DNA of 26,772 bases from a virus. Taxonomy: Duplodnaviria; Heunggongvirae; Uroviricota; Caudoviricetes. The translations under genes were made by a program, and so were the position numbers. Positions within the stretch are counted from its first letter, which is position 1. Each line of letters starts with the position of its first letter. Below are positions 6,782 to 15,233 of this stretch, piece after piece. The stretch spans positions 1 through 26,772 of the IMG/VR virus record IMGVR_UViG_2778260994_000003, one strand, 5' to 3'. The notes beneath the pieces were generated by a model that worked only from the letters and a program-made list of their open reading frames with translations, was not told where the DNA came from and searched no databases.

Positions 6782-6856
<75 letters not shown>

Positions 6857-6859
6857 ATA

Positions 6860-6935
<76 letters not shown>

Positions 6936-7103: not shown

Positions 7104-8150
7104 TTAACGATTATTTTTTATTTCAGTTACAGTCTGATTAAATCTCTCTTCTTCCAGTTCCACGCCAATTGCGCGACGTCCCAGTGAAAGTGCTGCTTTT
7201 ATTGTTGAGCCAGACCCCATAAAAAAATCAGCGACCAAATCACCGGGGCGACTGCTGGCAGTAATTATCTGACGCAACATATCTGCCGGTTTTTCACAGG
7301 GATGTTTGCCTGGATAATACTGCACAGGCTTGTGCGTCCAGACATCCGTATACGGAACAGCAGCTGATACGGAAAAATAACGCCGCAGGGATTTATACTC
7401 CTCCTGCAGGCTGGCATATTGCCGGTTCAGTTCACTGTATGTGCTGACCAGCTGGTGGTGCGGCTTTTCCAGCTCCCCGCGCTGATGTTTTTCTGCTGCA
7501 ACACGCGCGAACAGCGCCTGAAGTTTTTTGTAATCAGCCTCGTTCGGCAACTGCCACTGACTGGCACCAAACCAGTGTGACGCCATGTTTTTCTTTCCGG
7601 TGGCTTCCGCTATCTGTTTTGATGTTATCCCCAGAGATTCTCGCGCATCACGAAAGTAAGAAATCAGCGGGGCCATGACGCACTGTTTAAGCTCGCGCCC
7701 CTTTGCCGCATAGCCGTCATTTTTGGGCTGGTATGGCCCCTGATAATGTTCAGCAAACAGAATGCGCTCTGTTGCCGGGAAATACGCCCGCAGGCTTTCC
7801 TTGTTGCATCCGTTCCAGCGTCCGGACGGCTTCGCCCAGATAATGTGGTTCAGCACATTAAAGCGTTCACGCATCATGATTTCGATATCAGATGCCAGGC
7901 GATGCCCACAGAACAGGTAAAGGCTTCCGGCAGGTTTCAACACCCGCCAGAACTGGGCCAGACAGTGGTCCAGCCACTTAAGGTAATCTTCGTCCCCTTT
8001 CCACTGATTGTCCCAACCGTTGGGTTTCACCTTGAAGTAAGGCGGATCGGTAACAATCAGGTCAATGGAATCATCAGGCAGGGACTGAATAAAATGCAGG
8101 CAATCAGCGTTGATTAAATCAACACTGTTTATTTTTACAGTATTTTTCAT
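7104..8150 (-). CDS. DNA methyltransferase, beta-class N6-adenine/N4-cytosine type (orphan, phage late region)
   Basis: N-terminal DPPY motif (SIDLIVTDPPYF) and C-terminal SAM-binding motif (DFFMGSGST), the permuted order typical of beta-class amino-MTases. No cognate nuclease is adjacent. Confidence 0.85.
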   Translation of the reverse strand: MKNTVKINSVDLINADCLHFIQSLPDDSIDLIVTDPPYFKVKPNGWDNQWKGDEDYLKWLDHCLAQFWRVLKPAGSLYLFCGHRLASDIEIMMRERFNVLNHIIWAKPSGRWNGCNKESLRAYFPATERILFAEHYQGPYQPKNDGYAAKGRELKQCVMAPLISYFRDARESLGITSKQIAEATGKKNMASHWFGASQWQLPNEADYKKLQALFARVAAEKHQRGELEKPHHQLVSTYSELNRQYASLQEEYKSLRRYFSVSAAVPYTDVWTHKPVQYYPGKHPCEKPADMLRQIITASSRPGDLVADFFMGSGSTIKAALSLGRRAIGVELEEERFNQTVTEIKNNR

Positions 8151-8299: not shown

Positions 8300-8518
8300 T
8301 CATTGCTGAAGACGTCTGTAACAGCCGAACTGGTAATCTGCCAGCCCCGCCATAACCAACTGGGTCAGTATTAACTGACAGCGTTCGCGTGAAAGGTATG
8401 TGTTTTGTGCAATCTCCCCGACTGTTGCCGGTTCGATGCTTAATTCATTAAAAACAACTTTCGCCGTTTCTGTCATATCTTGCTGTTTTAGCATGTCTTT
8501 TTCCCTTCTGGTTAACAT
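8300..8518 (-). CDS. Hypothetical small protein, possible winged-helix fold
   Basis: 72-aa ORF with a weak RBS at the first ATG; an internal ATG at about 8494 has a better AAGGGA. Function unknown. Confidence 0.35.
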   Translation of the reverse strand: MLTRREKDMLKQQDMTETAKVVFNELSIEPATVGEIAQNTYLSRERCQLILTQLVMAGLADYQFGCYRRLQQ

Positions 8519-8616
8519 GACATACCAATAACTCTTGTCTAAAAAGCCAGCAAGATAAAAAGTCAGTATTCACTACCACCAGCGTGTTTACCGTACTGCA
8601 CCAAGTTTACAGGTAC

Positions 8617-8642
8617 AAAAAAACCCGCTCGACGGCGGGTTT
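8617..8642 (-). terminator. Intrinsic terminator on the minus strand
   Basis: AAACCCGC-6 nt-GCGGGTTT stem followed on the minus strand by a 7-nt T-run, in the divergent intergenic region upstream of the HslV-like gene. Confidence 0.65.
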
Positions 8643-8707
8643 AAGCTGTGTGGCGAAGTAACCACTCTTAACAGATTACAAGAATTTTTGCGTACGCGTT
8701 AATTTTT

Positions 8708-8737
8708 TTGTATTTTTCTCATTACACAACATATAAA
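8708..8737 (+). promoter_or_regulatory. Candidate sigma70 promoter for the HslV-like gene
   Basis: TTGTAT (8708..8713), 18-nt spacer, TATAAA (8732..8737). This would give a near-leaderless transcript; there is no obvious Shine-Dalgarno before the ATG at 8751. Confidence 0.3.
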
Positions 8738-8750
8738 CCCTATGTAAAAA

Positions 8751-10034
8751 ATGACAGCAGAAATAGCCGTATTTAACAAGACCGCAGTAGCTTTAGCCGC
8801 AGATTCAGCTGTAACGATTTCTGGAGGCGGCAAACATAAAATCTATAATGGCGCTGAAAAGCTTTTCGCTCTCACTAAACATCATCCTGTAGGTTTGATG
8901 GTATATGGAACTGGTGATCTCTGCACAGCTCCATGGGAGCTTATCATTAAGGCTTATAGAAAGGATTTAGGCTCTAAATGTTTTGACTCTTTGGAGGAAT
9001 ATGCTGAGGATTTCTTCAATTATCTACAGTCAGCTAAATCAATCATCACACCAGGTATGCGTGAGGCTCATCTTTATCACTTCCTGAGCGAGATTGTATT
9101 CAGCATGCTTGTTGATGCTTTTTCTGAAGGTCTCGAACCAACATATCTCGTTAACTTCGATAAGAATCAATTTGTTACAGACCTCACGAATTATTGCAAC
9201 GATCTCCTTACAAAATTATCTGATATTAATTACTTTGATGGTTTTACTCCGGATGATGAACAAGCAGCCCAAACCTATGCTTCATCAATTACCCAACGCA
9301 TCATTGCTCAAAAGTTTAGTGACTTTGATTCAATATCCATAACTCCACAGTTGACAAAAGCAGTTAGTGATGTATTGGCAGCTATGATATGCAAGCAAAG
9401 TGATATTGGTTCCGTCTCTGGGATTGTGATTGCAGGTTATGGCGATAAAGACTATTACCCTAAAGTATTATCATATGAAGTTTGTGGCTTCTTTAATGAT
9501 AAAATAAGGAAAACCACAGATGCTGACAAGTGCTGCATCACTCCTAATTGCGGCGTGACTCCCTTTGCGCAAGAGGATGAAGTTTCTGCTTTCATGCAAG
9601 GAGCTAGTTCACATCTTATCCAAAATCTTCATGCTGAGTATCAACGTTCTATCGGCGATTTACTTGATGGTATTGATTCAGTAATCACAGATTTGGTGCC
9701 CACTTCAGATATCGAAGGAGCCAAGGATGCTATAGTTGATGTAGTGCGCAGAACTGTTTCCGATTGCAAGGGGCGTATTGATAGCTTTGTCCGAGAAAAC
9801 TATGTTGACAAAGTCGTAAATATGATCGAGTTTTTACCCAAGCAAGATTTAGCTTATATGGCTGAATCATTAGTAAATTTAACCGCTTTCAAGCGCAAGG
9901 TCTCCGATGATACTGAAACAGTGGGAGGCCCCATAGATGTTGCAATCATTTCTAAAGCTGATGGTTTTATCTGGGTTAAACGTAAGCACTATTTTGCAAA
10001 AGAACTGAACCATCACTACTTTTCACGGTCATAG
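8751..10034 (+). CDS. HslV/proteasome-beta-like N-terminal-nucleophile hydrolase homologue (427 aa), function unknown
   Basis: After Met removal the protein starts T1-A-E-I-A-V and carries D17 (VALAADS), lysines at 27/29/36 and a VGLMVYGTGDLCTAPWELI segment. These align gaplessly with remembered HslV [21 protein letters not shown]...VIAGFAGGTADAFTLFELF. Low GC, and on the strand opposite the late operon. Confidence 0.5.
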   Translation: MTAEIAVFNKTAVALAADSAVTISGGGKHKIYNGAEKLFALTKHHPVGLMVYGTGDLCTAPWELIIKAYRKDLGSKCFDSLEEYAEDFFNYLQSAKSIITPGMREAHLYHFLSEIVFSMLVDAFSEGLEPTYLVNFDKNQFVTDLTNYCNDLLTKLSDINYFDGFTPDDEQAAQTYASSITQRIIAQKFSDFDSISITPQLTKAVSDVLAAMICKQSDIGSVSGIVIAGYGDKDYYPKVLSYEVCGFFNDKIRKTTDADKCCITPNCGVTPFAQEDEVSAFMQGASSHLIQNLHAEYQRSIGDLLDGIDSVITDLVPTSDIEGAKDAIVDVVRRTVSDCKGRIDSFVRENYVDKVVNMIEFLPKQDLAYMAESLVNLTAFKRKVSDDTETVGGPIDVAIISKADGFIWVKRKHYFAKELNHHYFSRS

Positions 10035-10057
10035 CAACAAATAGACAAGGGGAACAC

Positions 10058-10207
10058 ATGTCACTTAAGCAAGCCTATGAAAGAACTCAACCCAAAAGCA
10101 TCAATGATTTCTTTCAGTTGAGTACTTCTGGAAAGAGTCGACGTACTGTAACAAGCCAATCTAACTTCTTTACTAAATTGAACAAAACATTACCTGCACA
10201 ATCCTAA
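10058..10207 (+). CDS. Small 49-aa Ser/Thr-rich ORF co-oriented with and 23 nt downstream of the HslV-like gene
   Basis: AAGGGGAA Shine-Dalgarno 5 nt before the ATG. Peptide MSLKQAYERTQPKSINDFFQLSTSGKSRRTVTSQSNFFTKLNKTLPAQS. Ends 6 nt before a terminator hairpin. Too short for the ORF track. Confidence 0.35.
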   Translation: MSLKQAYERTQPKSINDFFQLSTSGKSRRTVTSQSNFFTKLNKTLPAQS

Positions 10208-10213
10208 AATGCT

Positions 10214-10235
10214 AAAAGCCACTACGGTGGCTTTT
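10214..10235. terminator. Bidirectional terminator hairpin between the HslV-like cassette and Q
   Basis: AAAAGCCAC-TACG-GTGGCTTTT, T-rich on both sides. Confidence 0.6.
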
Positions 10236-10240
10236 AGCTT

Positions 10241-10594
10241 TTATTTACATGCAATAACGCTCGTAATACCCTCTACAAAACCAATTGCAGTTTGTAATTC
10301 CTTTCTAATCGTGCCATCTGAACACCTTCTCTTTTTGGCAATAGTGCGTAATGAGATACCAATAACAAAGTGGGCTATGATGAGCTCATATTCCTCTGGT
10401 TTATACCTTCTCAACCGAGCCACACAACTGTCTATCATAATGCCTTCGTCATCATCACACTGAATCCGTGACTTTTTGCCATGAGGTAAAAGCCCCTTGA
10501 AGCCCGCTGCTATCGGTTGCCAATCGACACCACTATTTTCTGCTGCAGCCCATGCCCCCCAGCGGTCTAAAACCTCATACATATCACGCCCCAT
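10241..10594 (-). CDS. Late antiterminator Q (QuuD/QuuQ-type)
   Basis: LDRWGAWAA...DWQPIAAGFKGL...KSRIQCDDDEG matches the remembered QuuD pattern. The probable start is the ATG at 10594; the track ORF begins with GTG at 10603. Confidence 0.8.
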   Translation of the reverse strand: MGRDMYEVLDRWGAWAAAENSGVDWQPIAAGFKGLLPHGKKSRIQCDDDEGIMIDSCVARLRRYKPEEYELIIAHFVIGISLRTIAKKRRCSDGTIRKELQTAIGFVEGITSVIACK

Positions 10595-10955
10595 TACTAT
10601 CACCTCTAATTTCGCAAATCTTCACGCCCAGCCGACCACCAGGAACGAGCTTACCGCGCACAATATTGATTTCATCAAACTGCTCGTCGTCTATGAGAAG
10701 CCCCGCATGCGTCAGTGCATCCAGCGGTGCTTTCAGGATATTGTCCAGGTCCCGACGGCGCTTATCCGGCGGCTCTGCAGTAATTTTTATTGCCAGCCTT
10801 CCGGACAGGTTTAATTTCAGCCGCTGCTGGCGGACAATAAGTGCCACATCCCGGCGATAACGCTCACCGGCTTTTGATACAAAATATGTGCTGCCACGAC
10901 GACGCCAGTAGGTGTTCACCGTCGGCGGGTAAGGCAAAACAAACTCTATACGCAT
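10584..10955 (-). CDS. rusA: Holliday-junction resolvase RusA
   Basis: LPYPPTVNTYW...DKRRRDLDNILKAPLDALTHAGLLIDDEQ, the RusA catalytic-Asp pattern. Overlaps the start of Q. Confidence 0.85.
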   Translation of the reverse strand: MRIEFVLPYPPTVNTYWRRRGSTYFVSKAGERYRRDVALIVRQQRLKLNLSGRLAIKITAEPPDKRRRDLDNILKAPLDALTHAGLLIDDEQFDEINIVRGKLVPGGRLGVKICEIRGDSNGA

Positions 10956-10967
10956 CAGTAACCTCTT

Positions 10968-12014
10968 TTACCCGAGCACGCCGGTTGCAAAGGCGCGATC
11001 AAGAAAACGAAAAATTAAATCAATCTGGGAACCATGCTTTTCTTCAAATGCCAGCGGATCAGCATGAAGTTCGTTGTGATGCTCCCGGCACAACGGTAGC
11101 GTGAAAATATCGTGGGCTTTTGTCCCTATTCCGCCCTGACCATGACCAATCAGGTGATGGGGATCGTCGGCTGGCTTACCACAACACGCACACGGCTGTG
11201 TCTTTACCCAGCGCGTATATTTCTCATTTACCCAACGGCGACGTTTAGGTCGCTTCATGAAAGATTCCGGAGACTCCGGATCAACAGCAATGCTGACCAC
11301 CGTCTTTTCCTGTGGCGGGTTTTGCTGGTGGGCGTGAGGCAGCGGCGCAAGATTTTTTGTGCGCTGCTTCAGTATGCTGGTGGCGGTCTGCTCTCCCGGT
11401 ACGATGTCGCTTTCGCGGTACACCGAGCGAATTTTTTCCGCACGTAACCCCAGAGAACGACGTAATACTACCTCCGGTAGTGCGTCCGCCACCTGATTGC
11501 AGACAGCCCACCAGGATAATTCAGCCAGCGATAATTCCCGCTCCTGTGTGCCATTCATTGCATGGCGCATGACGTCAATCATCCATGCTGACAGGTTTTG
11601 GTGAGCAAGTTGCTCAAGTGATTCGGAGGACTGGTCACGCAACTGGTTGTCACAGTGCCAGCACAACACCATCGCGCCAGCACCGTAACGATGTATGACG
11701 GTTTCGCTGTGATGGTAATCACCATGAGGCCACTGGCAGGATTTAACATGACGCAGGAGCCAGTCAGACAGTGCACCAGCGCCGCCGGCAGCACGAATCA
11801 CCCGCTCGTTACTGAAAAACGGCAGTAATGATTTATCCTCCGCCAACGGCTGGCGAACGGCAGGAACGACTCCGGACGGCAGACTGCGCATGCTTTTCGG
11901 TTCAGGCTCCACCAGCACCCGGGGATTGTAAAATACCTGCATGGATTCACGACCAGGCTTAACGATCACCAGCCCGAGTTCCGGTACCGGAACAGGTCTA
12001 AGTAATACCCGCAC
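10968..12014 (-). CDS. DUF968-family prophage protein (YdfU-like) with C-terminal Cys/His motif
   Basis: 348 aa with C-terminal CACCGKPADDPHHLIGHGQGG...CREHHNELH. GTG start preceded by GGAGG. Same position relative to Q as ydfU in Qin, as recalled. Confidence 0.7.
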   Translation of the reverse strand: MRVLLRPVPVPELGLVIVKPGRESMQVFYNPRVLVEPEPKSMRSLPSGVVPAVRQPLAEDKSLLPFFSNERVIRAAGGAGALSDWLLRHVKSCQWPHGDYHHSETVIHRYGAGAMVLCWHCDNQLRDQSSESLEQLAHQNLSAWMIDVMRHAMNGTQERELSLAELSWWAVCNQVADALPEVVLRRSLGLRAEKIRSVYRESDIVPGEQTATSILKQRTKNLAPLPHAHQQNPPQEKTVVSIAVDPESPESFMKRPKRRRWVNEKYTRWVKTQPCACCGKPADDPHHLIGHGQGGIGTKAHDIFTLPLCREHHNELHADPLAFEEKHGSQIDLIFRFLDRAFATGVLG

Positions 12015-12015
12015 G

Positions 12016-12294
12016 TTACCTCCAGATCCGTTGTTGGTATGTGCGGGATGAACGCGGTGGGCGTTCGGAGTAAGGAAGTCTGACTGAGATTATCCAGTGA
12101 CGGTAGTCGAGGCTAAGGGTTTTCTTAACCTCGTATCCGCGCCTGCGGTAACACTGAATTAGCCACTCGGCCTGTTCTTCAGTGCATGGGGGATGCTGGA
12201 ACCAGTCAGATTTGAAAGTGCGGGAACGCCGCCCGTGCCTGCTGGCAAAGACGGCAGAATCATCAGAATTGTGTAATTTGGTATCGTGCGCCAT
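12016..12294 (-). CDS. Hypothetical small prophage protein (Rem-like position)
   Basis: 92-aa ORF from the ATG at 12294 (MAHDTKLH...). The longer track ORF to 12423 would run through a terminator hairpin and is rejected. Confidence 0.45.
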   Translation of the reverse strand: MAHDTKLHNSDDSAVFASRHGRRSRTFKSDWFQHPPCTEEQAEWLIQCYRRRGYEVKKTLSLDYRHWIISVRLPYSERPPRSSRTYQQRIWR

Positions 12295-12365
12295 CGGTTG
12301 TCTCTGCTGGCGCAGCAGGTGCCAGTTGTTCAAGCTGGCGTGCGAATTGTAAACCAGAATGCCAG

Positions 12366-12393
12366 GAAAAAACAAAACCCGCCGAAGCGGGTT
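12366..12393 (-). terminator. Intrinsic terminator (minus strand) downstream of hok
   Basis: AACCCGC-CGAA-GCGGGTT stem followed on the minus strand by TTTGTTTTTT. Confidence 0.7.
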
Positions 12394-12461
12394 AAGTGCG
12401 GGTGCGTTGAGAATGCCTGCCACATCAGAGGTGGCGAGGGATTTCTCCCTCGCCGGGTCTC

Positions 12462-12617
12462 TTACTCCTCAGGTTCGTAAGCTGTGAAGACAGCGACCTC
12501 CGTCTGGCCGGTTCGGATTCGTACCTCGCAGAGGTCTTTCCTCGTTACCAGTGCCGTCACTATGGCGGTTAAACAGATGACGATCAGGGCGATTAACATC
12601 GCCTTTTGCTGCTTCAT
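12462..12617 (-). CDS. hokD: Hok-family type I toxin (51 aa)
   Basis: Hand translation gives MKQQKAMLIALIVICLTAIVTALVTRKDLCEVRIRTGQTEVAVFTAYEPEE, essentially the HokD/RelF sequence as I remember it. GGAG upstream. A 19-codon upstream ORF (about 12614..12675) overlaps the hok ATG. Too short for the ORF track. Confidence 0.85.
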   Translation of the reverse strand: MKQQKAMLIALIVICLTAIVTALVTRKDLCEVRIRTGQTEVAVFTAYEPEE

Positions 12618-12828
12618 AGCCTGCTTCTCCTTGACCTTTCGGTCCGTAAGAGGCTAATCTCTATGTGTCGCATAGATATGGCCTCAGATTAATGTTAAGC
12701 GTCTTGCAGGACGCGTAATGTTAACTGGGGCTTTTCTCTATCTGCCTTTTGGTGTTCATGCCTGAGACAGATAGCCTCAAGCACCCGCAGCCATTCTACT
12801 TAACTCCCGTTACCTCGCCAATATAAAA

Positions 12829-13148: not shown

Positions 13149-13985
13149 CTAATGATGATAAATACCATCGTCTAAAGGGGGACCTTCAGCCGTAACCCCC
13201 GTGATACTACTTGGCGGTTCAAAGATGGCCCGACCAAATATTGCATCAAACTCTGCTTTTGTGACTGATAAGTATTGCAAGATGAGCTCTAGCAGCTCTC
13301 TGTACGTATCACAATGCCATTCAATGTGAGGACATATTCGGGAGAGAACTCTGTTCTTAAAATCATCCAGATTATTTGGGACTTCCAGCAAGTTACCAGT
13401 GTTTAATGCTTTCGACATAAACTTGTAATTGAGCATAGAGAGAACCACTACTGATACACCTTTCTCTTGCCTTAACTGATCGAACTTCTCTTGTGCTTGA
13501 AGGCTTAGCTTGGCGTATTCGCGATCTCGTTTAGAGTTGATTGGTTCGACGTACTGAAGCGGTTCGTCTGCAGCATCACCGATACGTGGACAAAAGTATC
13601 TATTCCACCAAGCCTCAAAATACCTTTTTTGGAACTCAAGGTATGTCATCCCAATAATATTGGTGTTTTGAGTGTACTGTTTAGCACCCTGCTGAAGCCC
13701 GTGCTTTGAAATAATAAATCCAATATTAGCCCCGGTTTCATGCATTACCGTGGTGAACGAATGGACCACCGTCTGTGGTATAGAACTACCCCAGTTTTTG
13801 CATTCCACAATGTATCTGATTTTGTCCACGCTCCTAACATCTGTAGCAAGAACATCCACATTCACCGAGCCACGCGGGGTTTCTAAATCGACCTCGACTT
13901 CTGCAAACAAGCCAACATTACGGAATATACGTTGGACCCCTGTCTGGAGGTCTTGCCAGTTTTCTGGTAGTGGGTCATCGATCAC
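13149..13985 (-). CDS. Mrr-like (PD-(D/E)xK restriction-endonuclease fold) N-terminal domain protein with unknown C-terminal domain
   Basis: VDVLATD...IRYIVECKNWGSS...GFIISKHG pattern (D...E-C-K) typical of Mrr/restriction-endonuclease catalytic cores. GTG start with AGGAAAAG upstream. GC content lower than the host-like genes. Confidence 0.55.
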   Translation of the reverse strand: MIDDPLPENWQDLQTGVQRIFRNVGLFAEVEVDLETPRGSVNVDVLATDVRSVDKIRYIVECKNWGSSIPQTVVHSFTTVMHETGANIGFIISKHGLQQGAKQYTQNTNIIGMTYLEFQKRYFEAWWNRYFCPRIGDAADEPLQYVEPINSKRDREYAKLSLQAQEKFDQLRQEKGVSVVVLSMLNYKFMSKALNTGNLLEVPNNLDDFKNRVLSRICPHIEWHCDTYRELLELILQYLSVTKAEFDAIFGRAIFEPPSSITGVTAEGPPLDDGIYHH

Positions 13986-14279: not shown

Positions 14280-15233
14280 TTAAGTGTCCGATGACTTTGT
14301 TTCAGCCGCTTTATCCTCAACCAATACCCAATCTCCGGAGCTAACCTTTGTCATAAGACAAAATGGAAAGTTGTTAAAAAAATGTTCAATATCACTTGAG
14401 GGTATTTTCTCAATTTTATTTAAACAACCATCAGCTATTTGTAGGGAAATCATTTCTCTTGTAATTTTCATAAATTGATCAACATCAGATAACAACCATG
14501 TTTCATGATGAGCACCAAACAATTTGTGCGGTATATCATCAAGAATAAGATTGTCTAAATCATGTGATTTATCTTTGTTTAGCTCAAGAAGTACAAAATC
14601 AAAAAAATCAAAAAGATATGAATAGAGAAGATGAGTATAAAAGGTAAAATAGTAATCAGCAAAATTAATATTGTTATTGAATCTATTTGAATACATCATA
14701 TGAGGTTGAATCAGATCGTTTAGATCAGAGTCATATGCTTGGAAACAAATCTTTGTTTTAATATTATCATCGTTGACATAATAAGGATTTACTGTTATCC
14801 CTCCATGAACTATCTTATTTCTTATTTTATTAAAGTCCTTATACCATTTTAAATTCAAATCTGGAAATTCCTGTGCATATTGCTGGAAATGATTTTCAAG
14901 GTAATCATATTTGTTGCCATTTTTTTTAGTTGGAAAAATTAATTTATCAGCTATCTGATATGCAATATCCCATATCGTGCTGATTTTATAATAGCAATAC
15001 TCAATAGCACTAATGCTGACAATTGATGTTGCATCATGTTTTCTGATGAACTCAGCATCTTTTTGAATTTTATTAATGTAAGTAATCATATAAAACAGTT
15101 TCTTGAAATGAGTTTTTAAATTTTTTAAAAGAAACTGAAGTTTTATGTCTTCCAGTGTATCTTCTTCATACTTATTTAAGTACATAATAATTTTATAAAG
15201 TGGACTGCCAACTCTTTTTGCATGTACATCCAT
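14280..15233 (-). CDS. AT-rich hypothetical protein with a HEPN-like R-N-x3-H motif (Abi-like candidate)
   Basis: 317 aa at roughly 30% GC. Contains KIRNKIVHGG (R-x4-H with a polar residue after the Arg). GGAG RBS and its own TTGACT-17-TTAAAT promoter. Confidence 0.45.
   Translation of the reverse strand: MDVHAKRVGSPLYKIIMYLNKYEEDTLEDIKLQFLLKNLKTHFKKLFYMITYINKIQKDAEFIRKHDATSIVSISAIEYCYYKISTIWDIAYQIADKLIFPTKKNGNKYDYLENHFQQYAQEFPDLNLKWYKDFNKIRNKIVHGGITVNPYYVNDDNIKTKICFQAYDSDLNDLIQPHMMYSNRFNNNINFADYYFTFYTHLLYSYLFDFFDFVLLELNKDKSHDLDNLILDDIPHKLFGAHHETWLLSDVDQFMKITREMISLQIADGCLNKIEKIPSSDIEHFFNNFPFCLMTKVSSGDWVLVEDKAAETKSSDT

Follow-up and report, generated by a model that had tools for sequence, protein, structure and literature searches.

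Apart from HslV, Anbu, BPH and connectase, the homologues of the proteasome are orphan enzymes, and there are many of them. Fuchs, Alva & Lupas 2021 (PMC8665760) catalogued 22 new ones, and PMI-4 ('Proteasome homolog with Multiple Insertions', group II) is the largest newly described group, ranging over Proteobacteria, Firmicutes, Actinobacteria, Bacteroidetes, PVC and other bacteria, Euryarchaeota and phages, but not Crenarchaeota (PMC8665760). PMI-3 and PMI-4 carry insertions at both of two sites, after H1/H2 and between H3 and H4; insertions at both sites should clash and prevent assembly into rings or double rings, and the authors found no gene context or co-occurrence pattern suggestive of function (PMC8665760). 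Here we analyse a two-gene insert in a 26,772-nucleotide stretch of Escherichia coli prophage DNA (IMG/VR record IMGVR_UViG_2778260994_000003, positions 1 to 26,772; hereafter the window), in which the gene for a 427-residue proteasome-like N-terminal nucleophile (Ntn) enzyme is followed by a gene for a 49-residue partner protein.

The insert is a low-GC segment of ∼1.5 kb (8714..10240) that has the conserved backbone of the Q junction on one side and, on the other, the stop codon of the antiterminator gene Q. It is cargo of a lambdoid prophage and forms a self-contained accessory module. The first open reading frame (ORF) occupies 8751..10034 on the plus strand. The second (10058..10207, also plus) begins 23 nt 3′ of the first and has a Shine-Dalgarno sequence, AAGGGG, at 10047-10052, 5 nt before its ATG. 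A palindromic and hence bidirectional intrinsic terminator (10211..10238) closes the cassette and abuts the Q stop codon; the terminator scan gave it a 12-bp stem with six GC pairs and T-runs on either side. A preliminary description of the window had reported this layout, and both ORFs, their spacing, the low GC content, the terminator and the opposite-strand position between Q and the methylase, tRNA and lysis genes were all recovered here. It had also placed the cassette antisense to the late operon. The opposite-strand position holds; the pair is flanked by the Q stop codon and a ∼155-nt junction, and may be either within or upstream of the late transcript.

The 427-residue family probably corresponds to PMI-4, sharing with it a proteasome-like core, a catalytic triad, the lack of a propeptide, both long insertions, large family size and a matching distribution. 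The two were matched by description (insertion sites, size and distribution), and the PMI-4 representative HDY66466.1 was not among the cluster members of the ten most consensus-like homologues. The module had previously been called undescribed; homologues with the same insertion sites and distribution were in fact already catalogued as PMI-4, but neither a function nor an informative context was given for them (PMC8665760). What appears to be new here is the pairing with a small ORF, together with recurrent mobile-element contexts: an insertion hotspot, satellite phages and a repressor-adjacent position. In one of the biggest orphan families of proteasome homologues (∼6,000 clusters at 50% identity), the enzyme gene is nearly always accompanied by a tiny gene, often overlooked in annotation, and the family thereby becomes a directly testable two-gene system.

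Fold, active site and extent of the 427-residue family

The 427-residue ORF lies far beyond chance, with homologues found at E-values down to 1e-284 and phrog_5990 matched full-length (E 1e-236). No match to the protein was obtained in Pfam, NCBIfam or PADLOC profile scans, and scans of both cassette proteins matched only phrog_5990 and phrog_11309, families to which no function is assigned. In a sequence-profile search of the PDB (HMMER), the best proteasome match was the beta subunit of Thermoplasma acidophilum, collinear at a sub-threshold E of 1.3. This alignment pairs Glu17 with D18, Lys33-Leu-Phe with K37-L38-F39, and 'SGGMIDVAVITRKDGYV' with 'VGGPIDVAIISKADGFI'. HslV chains gave no match in this search up to E = 10. 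The profile comparison proposed earlier, against proteasome, HslV and Ntn families, was thus without a significant match.

Because the PDB profile matches were sub-threshold, structure comparison was needed. When the predicted structure was compared with known folds, there was a strong match to a proteasome-type core in an alpha-beta-beta-alpha Ntn sandwich. The 20S beta and alpha subunits, Anbu and BPH all ranked above HslV, and connectase ranked well below 20S beta and Anbu. No significant match was seen in the BFVD viral fold search. Judged from this model, the protein belongs to the proteasome-like Ntn hydrolases; the assignment is made on fold and active-site residues, as was that of the 22 families of PMC8665760.

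Conservation was assessed in 78 non-identical homologues with 30-67% identity from bacteria, archaea, phages and satellites. Residues T2, D18, S19, K37, G229, G231, G393, P394, D396 and G405 were 100% conserved. The N-terminus reads M-T-A-E-I-A-V-F...A-L-A-A-D18...K37, followed by VGLMVYGTGDLCTAPWELI, and the equivalents of Thr1, Asp17 (D18) and Lys33 (K37), the predicted catalytic triad, are therefore all among the invariant residues. The preliminary assignment to the proteasome or Ntn class is borne out by the strong fold match and by this invariance. Its gapless alignment with the N-terminus of HslV holds up to Asp17; beyond this, the Lys33 equivalent K37 can be reached only with an insertion of 3-4 residues. 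A likely equivalent of the oxyanion residue Gly47 is G53, identified by manual alignment ('GMTIAG'/'GLMVYG'); this position is Gly in 82% of the sequences and otherwise Asn, Ser or Asp.

The M1-T2 pair was invariant (78/78 sequences). In almost every one of the 150 top-scoring family members the profile match opens at residue 1, and so a propeptide is lacking. Methionine aminopeptidase prefers small penultimate residues, and from this preference we infer that it exposes Thr1. Once exposed, Thr1 would form the catalytic centre together with Asp17 (D18) and Lys33 (K37).

Two helical insertions interrupt the core of the model. The first (∼residues 100-215, ∼115 residues) follows H1/H2, which are placed at H62-73 and H81-94, and the second (∼287-360, ∼75 residues) falls between H3 and H4; there is no S3/S4 insertion. 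Relative to 20S beta and Anbu (family T1), the protein has ∼190 extra residues in these two helical insertions, gives no significant profile match (none in Pfam; E 1.3 in the PDB) and has no alpha subunit or ring partner but a dedicated gene for a partner of ∼50 residues. In 20S- and HslV-type proteins, the positions that hold these insertions form the lining of the ring cavity and of the interface between rings; the 427-residue enzyme therefore probably forms no classical barrel. The insertions themselves probably act as a cap or specificity domain.

The family comprises 6,025 clusters at 50% identity with E ≤1e-3, of which 3,338 reach ≤1e-30. The best 150 members are all 417-457 residues long with a single matched stretch, and a full-length copy is present in at least 348 species representatives. 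These cover Proteobacteria, Firmicutes, Bacteroidota, Actinobacteria, Planctomycetota, Chloroflexota, Acidobacteriota, Methanosarcinales, ANME and DPANN archaea, and others; in public records, every name given is 'hypothetical' or 'uncharacterised' protein. A prophage location, previously taken to define the module, is therefore not a defining trait of a family that spans many bacterial phyla and archaea and is often found in non-phage contexts.

The small gene and the genomic settings of the pair

With the stop codon of the 427-residue-type gene as reference, ORFs of 35-100 residues that start between −45 and +60 nt were sought in 84 loci. An ORF of 45-75 residues was found directly 3′ in 81 of these, at offsets of −38 to +31 nt. 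As 45% of control stop codons also have a downstream ORF, this presence test was not relied on alone. A hidden Markov model (HMM) made from the partner ORFs gave 47 matches with E <0.01 among 8,043 small decoy ORFs; all 47 were directly downstream of a proteasome homologue and none was off-position. A small partner is kept in synteny, the point that the preliminary description had proposed to check, and 47 of the ORFs make up a sequence family. Their motif is approximately Y-[KR]-S-x-x-E-F-E-x-x-[FY]-F-P-K, after which comes an amphipathic helix, L-G-x-x-L-A-x-E-x-L. The gamma-proteobacterial partners (L-x-E-W-x-x-x-F-x-P) align at the motif with E 0.003.

In the clade to which the window belongs, the small ORF has the consensus M-S-L-K-Q-x-[YF]...K-S-[IV]-N-D-F-F...N-F-F-T-K-L. 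It is conserved across Klebsiella, Enterobacter, Serratia, Pectobacterium and Yersinia and is kept in all close relatives. Nonsynonymous divergence (dN) was 0.05-0.29 and synonymous divergence (dS) was saturated at ≥0.9, with dN/dS of 0.05-0.2 where computable; as judged from these substitution rates, the 49-residue ORF is under purifying selection. The relatives also keep the Shine-Dalgarno sequence and a hairpin terminator at the small ORF, with stem sequences that differ between lineages, and gene callers called the ORF independently in several loci. We considered that the small ORF might be spurious, and this was ruled out by the dN/dS values, the conserved Shine-Dalgarno sequence and terminator, and the independent gene calls. 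The ORF is unannotated in the RefSeq genome of an enterotoxigenic E. coli (ETEC) strain and annotated in a Providencia phage and a Javan satellite. The spacing is 23 nt in the window; in most other lineages, the small ORF abuts or overlaps the stop codon of the large one. A low-confidence structure model of the 49-residue protein has three short helices.

The setting of the cassette in E. coli is that of variable cargo. The conserved lambdoid backbone junction of ∼155 nt (8560..8713) lies directly 3′ of Q where the slot is empty. It was found, with 91-96% matches, in 2,503 of 5,426 complete E. coli genomes and in 48 phage records, whereas the full cassette was present in only nine of the 5,426 genomes, several of them from an ETEC genome series. 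In phage PhiR5_1 the junction directly abuts the Q stop codon, and so we take its slot to be an empty site. On alignment, homology to PhiR5_1 and to phage cdtI stops at ∼8713, which sets the left edge of the insert, and the right edge is the end of the Q ORF at 10241. The GC content is 0.37-0.41 over 8501-10500 as against 0.53-0.55 over 10501-12500.

In every sampled case where the slot holds something else, the cargo again lies on the strand opposite to Q. Phage cdtI has an opposite-strand pair encoding a DUF6731 protein and a 147-residue protein, and antisense cargo occupied the slot in all four of the other E. coli prophages sampled. In three of these four, the cargo was a KAP-family NTPase related to PifA (E 6e-18), with a full-length match to the PADLOC candidate PDC-S20 (E 5e-177); in the remaining one it was a pair of 87 and 246 residues. 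Because the slot is empty or otherwise filled elsewhere, we regard the ∼1.5-kb cassette as cargo, and the interval from Q to the junction as a hotspot where insertions recur, in keeping with the moron slot proposed in the preliminary description. The PifA-like NTPase resembles the cassette in its slot, antisense orientation, similar size, low GC content and sporadic presence in E. coli prophages; there is no sequence or fold relationship, and PDC-S20 is itself only a candidate defence gene. Enterobacterial relatives with 63-89% identity, those of Klebsiella and Enterobacter among them, also have the cassette in this slot, and its orientation is unchanged. All of them have a PF06530 Q gene next to it, while the other cargo and the lysis genes vary.

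The pair is autonomous, with no Pfam family found in more than 4 of its 150 nearest neighbour ORFs. It forms the last two genes in seven satellite phages of Streptococcus. It follows integrase-AlpA-Toprim/VapE primase in a Serratia island, lies in an island with integrase and Phage_GPA in Alteromonas, stands beside a type I restriction-modification (R-M) system and an integrase in Vibrio, and comes after tail-fibre genes in Yersinia. In the Providencia phage it is located between Q and holin, co-oriented with the late genes. In a Gilliamella prophage (L116, 3278-5462), the proteasome-like gene begins 79 nt 3′ of a CI-type repressor gene (HTH_3 + Peptidase_S24) on the same strand and is followed by a 52-residue ORF. 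So placed, the gene would be expressed in the lysogen; in phage lambda, rexAB holds this position. Plasmids also carry the family. Among the neighbours, R-M components, Zeta toxin and Fic/SoFic recur in raw counts, as do housekeeping genes. A larger operon was considered for some archaeal loci, in which a pair of ∼150 and ∼800 residues recurs upstream, and was rejected: these genes encode CO-dehydrogenase subunits and reflect synteny among related methanogens.

Candidate functions of the pair

Our leading interpretation, held tentatively and with a little less than even confidence, is that the cassette is a conflict module expressed in the lysogen, acting by phage exclusion, by abortive infection or in a toxin-antitoxin-like manner. 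The protease would be its effector, which the small protein would regulate or serve as substrate. It is the best supported reading because of the mobile-element cargo contexts and the hotspot shared with the PifA-like candidate. The role in defence or lysogenic conversion that the preliminary description had suggested is likewise drawn from context. The 49-residue protein, predicted to be largely helical or disordered, would be a dedicated partner of the enzyme. Either it would restrain the protease or the protease would process it, and it could thus be a pseudo-substrate inhibitor, an antitoxin or a pro-peptide; this state would last until an incoming phage perturbs the pair.

Several observations weigh against this interpretation. 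The first concerns chemistry. Ser129, Asp166 and Ser169, which have a supporting role in active 20S beta subunits, have no evident equivalents in the alignment: A273-Q274 are conserved where Ser129 would be, Thr388 is at the position of Asp166 with a near-invariant Glu389 one residue later, and V391 aligns with Ser169. Because of this, the catalytic chemistry may differ, although these three residues are not required in all proteasome homologues. The second concerns expression. The preliminary description had credited the cassette with its own promoter-like hexamers, which were not confirmed: a consensus promoter scan found no sigma-70 site of ≥9/12 upstream of 8751. The scan gave only a weak TTGCGT-N17-TATTTT (7/12), which is conserved among relatives and sits in backbone sequence also present in a phage without the cassette. 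As no convincing promoter was found, expression of the cassette in the lysogen is an assumption. Third, PADLOC-DB 2.0 contained no family matching either cassette protein at E up to 1, the literature searched held no experimental or computational paper tying the 427-residue family to a function, and many loci, archaeal ones above all, lie beside housekeeping genes such as those for CO dehydrogenase.

The last of these observations concerns the partner itself. When the link between the 49-residue protein of the window clade and the pan-family partner was examined by HMM iteration and hhalign, with Pectobacterium and Yersinia intermediates added, it was not significant (hhalign E 0.08; 22 of 200 shuffles reached the score). 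The window-clade protein may therefore be either a fast-diverged orthologue of the pan-family partner or its replacement.

A more general form of the conflict-module proposal extends it to all prokaryotes: a widespread immune or conflict system in which a non-barrel, proteasome-fold Thr1 effector would be gated by a protein of ∼50 residues, or would process or ligate it. We regard this wider claim as rather unlikely as it stands. Should the pair exclude phages, it would bring a new catalytic class, the threonine N-terminal nucleophile, into prokaryotic immunity. If the wider proposal were true, the enzyme would be the first defence effector with a proteasome fold in either bacteria or archaea, and a large orphan family would gain a function.

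A precedent for a specific, non-degradative function is connectase (DUF2121, MJ0548), a non-barrel proteasome homologue with one dedicated protein substrate. By analogy, the 427-residue enzyme could be a monomeric, sequence-specific transpeptidase or ligase that cleaves or ligates the small partner at its conserved aromatic motif. Most lineages have E-F-x-x-x-F-F-P as this motif, and the window clade has N-D-F-F and N-F-F. The product could be a tag or a matured peptide. A specific ligase or protease with a built-in substrate might also find use as a tool. The structural comparison does not favour this, given the low rank of connectase noted above. Moreover, connectase lacks H1/H2 and has a two-helix S3/S4 insertion covering the active site (PMC8665760), whereas the 427-residue model has H1/H2 and no S3/S4 insertion. 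Nothing marks the partner as a substrate rather than a regulator, and the mobile-element contexts would be left unexplained. We thus consider a connectase-like activity quite improbable.

The same low probability attaches, in our view, to a plain toxin-antitoxin (TA) or addiction module, in which a protease toxin and a small labile antitoxin would stabilise mobile elements with no specific anti-phage role. The likeness to TA modules is one of architecture only, a compact bicistronic pair with a small second protein, and in most lineages the two ORFs overlap or abut. The pair is autonomous, has a patchy and horizontally spread distribution, is carried on plasmids, satellites and prophages, and has TA genes nearby in several cases (e.g. 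HicAB, Zeta toxin and hok/sok). Set against this, the large-then-small gene order is atypical of type II TA systems, as is a small protein in which no DNA-binding domain was detected, and both the hotspot shared with the PifA-like candidate and the position after CI point to exclusion. TA and defence roles are not mutually exclusive.

We give equally little credence to a regulatory protease that arose in cells and has a housekeeping or stress-related role, its copies on phages and islands being incidental hitch-hikers or serving the element itself, for example by processing a phage or host protein or in counter-defence. Such an origin would account for an ancient, uniform family of 6,025 clusters over many bacterial phyla and archaea, for the housekeeping neighbours at many loci and for the co-orientation of the Providencia phage pair with late genes. 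It would also be in line with the 2021 catalogue, in which proteasome homologues often co-occur in genomes and diverse or complementary functions are inferred for them (PMC8665760). It is difficult to reconcile with a distribution that is very patchy within species (9/5,426 E. coli genomes), with a GC content foreign to the flanks and with the repeated finding of the gene in cargo positions of mobile elements. In addition, neither our neighbour survey nor PMC8665760 gives a conserved neighbour of cellular type or an AAA+ unfoldase.

Finally, an ATP-dependent subunit of the HslV (ClpQ) type, assembling into rings with an unfoldase, is exceedingly improbable, and identity with HslV is effectively excluded. 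HslV is a bacterial Thr1 protease of the same superfamily, with the N-terminal Thr, Asp17 and a Lys33 equivalent in common. It is, however, a compact protein of ∼175 residues that lacks insertions and forms a double hexameric ring, as opposed to 427 residues with two large helical insertions at ring-contact sites. No HslU or other AAA+ gene is adjacent in the window or at any examined locus, and HslV is not the nearest relative, the fold being closer to 20S and Anbu. The likeness drawn in the preliminary description is therefore one to proteasome-type enzymes, and not to HslV in particular.

Neighbouring genes and sequence signals in the window

The right neighbour of the slot is the antiterminator gene Q, which encodes 120 residues (10241..10603, minus strand; PF06530, E 1.3e-43). 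To the left of the junction, the first backbone gene is a 72-residue ORF (8300..8518, minus strand) that matches phrog_331 (E 5e-35), with only weak winged-helix matches in a Pfam-type scan. It corresponds to hypothetical protein WP_001355891.1 and was found at the same place in 5/5 E. coli prophages examined. The next backbone gene, which separates the slot from the tRNA and lysis genes, encodes a phage DNA N6/N4 methyltransferase (7104..8150, minus strand; PF01555, E 5e-45), which also matches PADLOC MTase_II (E 2.5e-151). Genes for tRNA-Gly(TCC) and tRNA-Thr(TGT) lie at 6782-6856 and 6860-6935 (minus strand), between the methyltransferase and the lysis genes. Comparison with the annotated ETEC genome that carries an identical cassette places the holins and endolysin beyond these tRNAs.

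In a Klebsiella oxytoca prophage, a HicA/HicB toxin-antitoxin pair (loci L097-L099, 4102-4733) is found between the cassette and the holin. As this pair sits where the window has the methyltransferase and tRNAs, the interval from Q to the lysis genes stacks several accessory modules.

Within the junction (8560-8713) are a terminator on the minus strand (8642->8621) and, at 8690-8697, the palindrome GCGTACGC. The palindrome is flanked by T-runs and is part of a block, TTTTTGCGTACGCGTTAATTTTTTTGTATTTT (within 8669-8717), that is near-invariant 5′ of the cassette in six relatives. A variant of the block, GCGGACCGC, occurs in phages without the cassette. The block may belong to the qut region or to a late promoter that depends on Q; alternatively, it may act as a small terminator. 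Closer to the cassette, the 427-residue ORF has no recognisable Shine-Dalgarno sequence at 8740-8750; its start is instead preceded by an A-rich run, TAAAAAATG, which is conserved in relatives. Within the pair, therefore, the small ORF has a strong Shine-Dalgarno sequence whereas the large ORF has none.

Towards the prophage edge, a gene at 13149-13985 (minus strand) encodes a 278-residue protein with an Mrr_cat restriction-endonuclease domain (Pfam E 4e-11). The adjoining 317-residue ORF (14280-15233, minus strand) has a GC content of 27-31% and no match in Pfam or PADLOC. At the equivalent place, ETEC-2265 has a ParA-family gene and two hypothetical genes; because the genes there differ, this region is another variable cargo spot. 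In the early region of the prophage, a match to the sok antitoxin RNA at 12615-12786 (minus strand; Rfam RF01794, 106.7 bits) indicates a hok/sok type I toxin-antitoxin locus.

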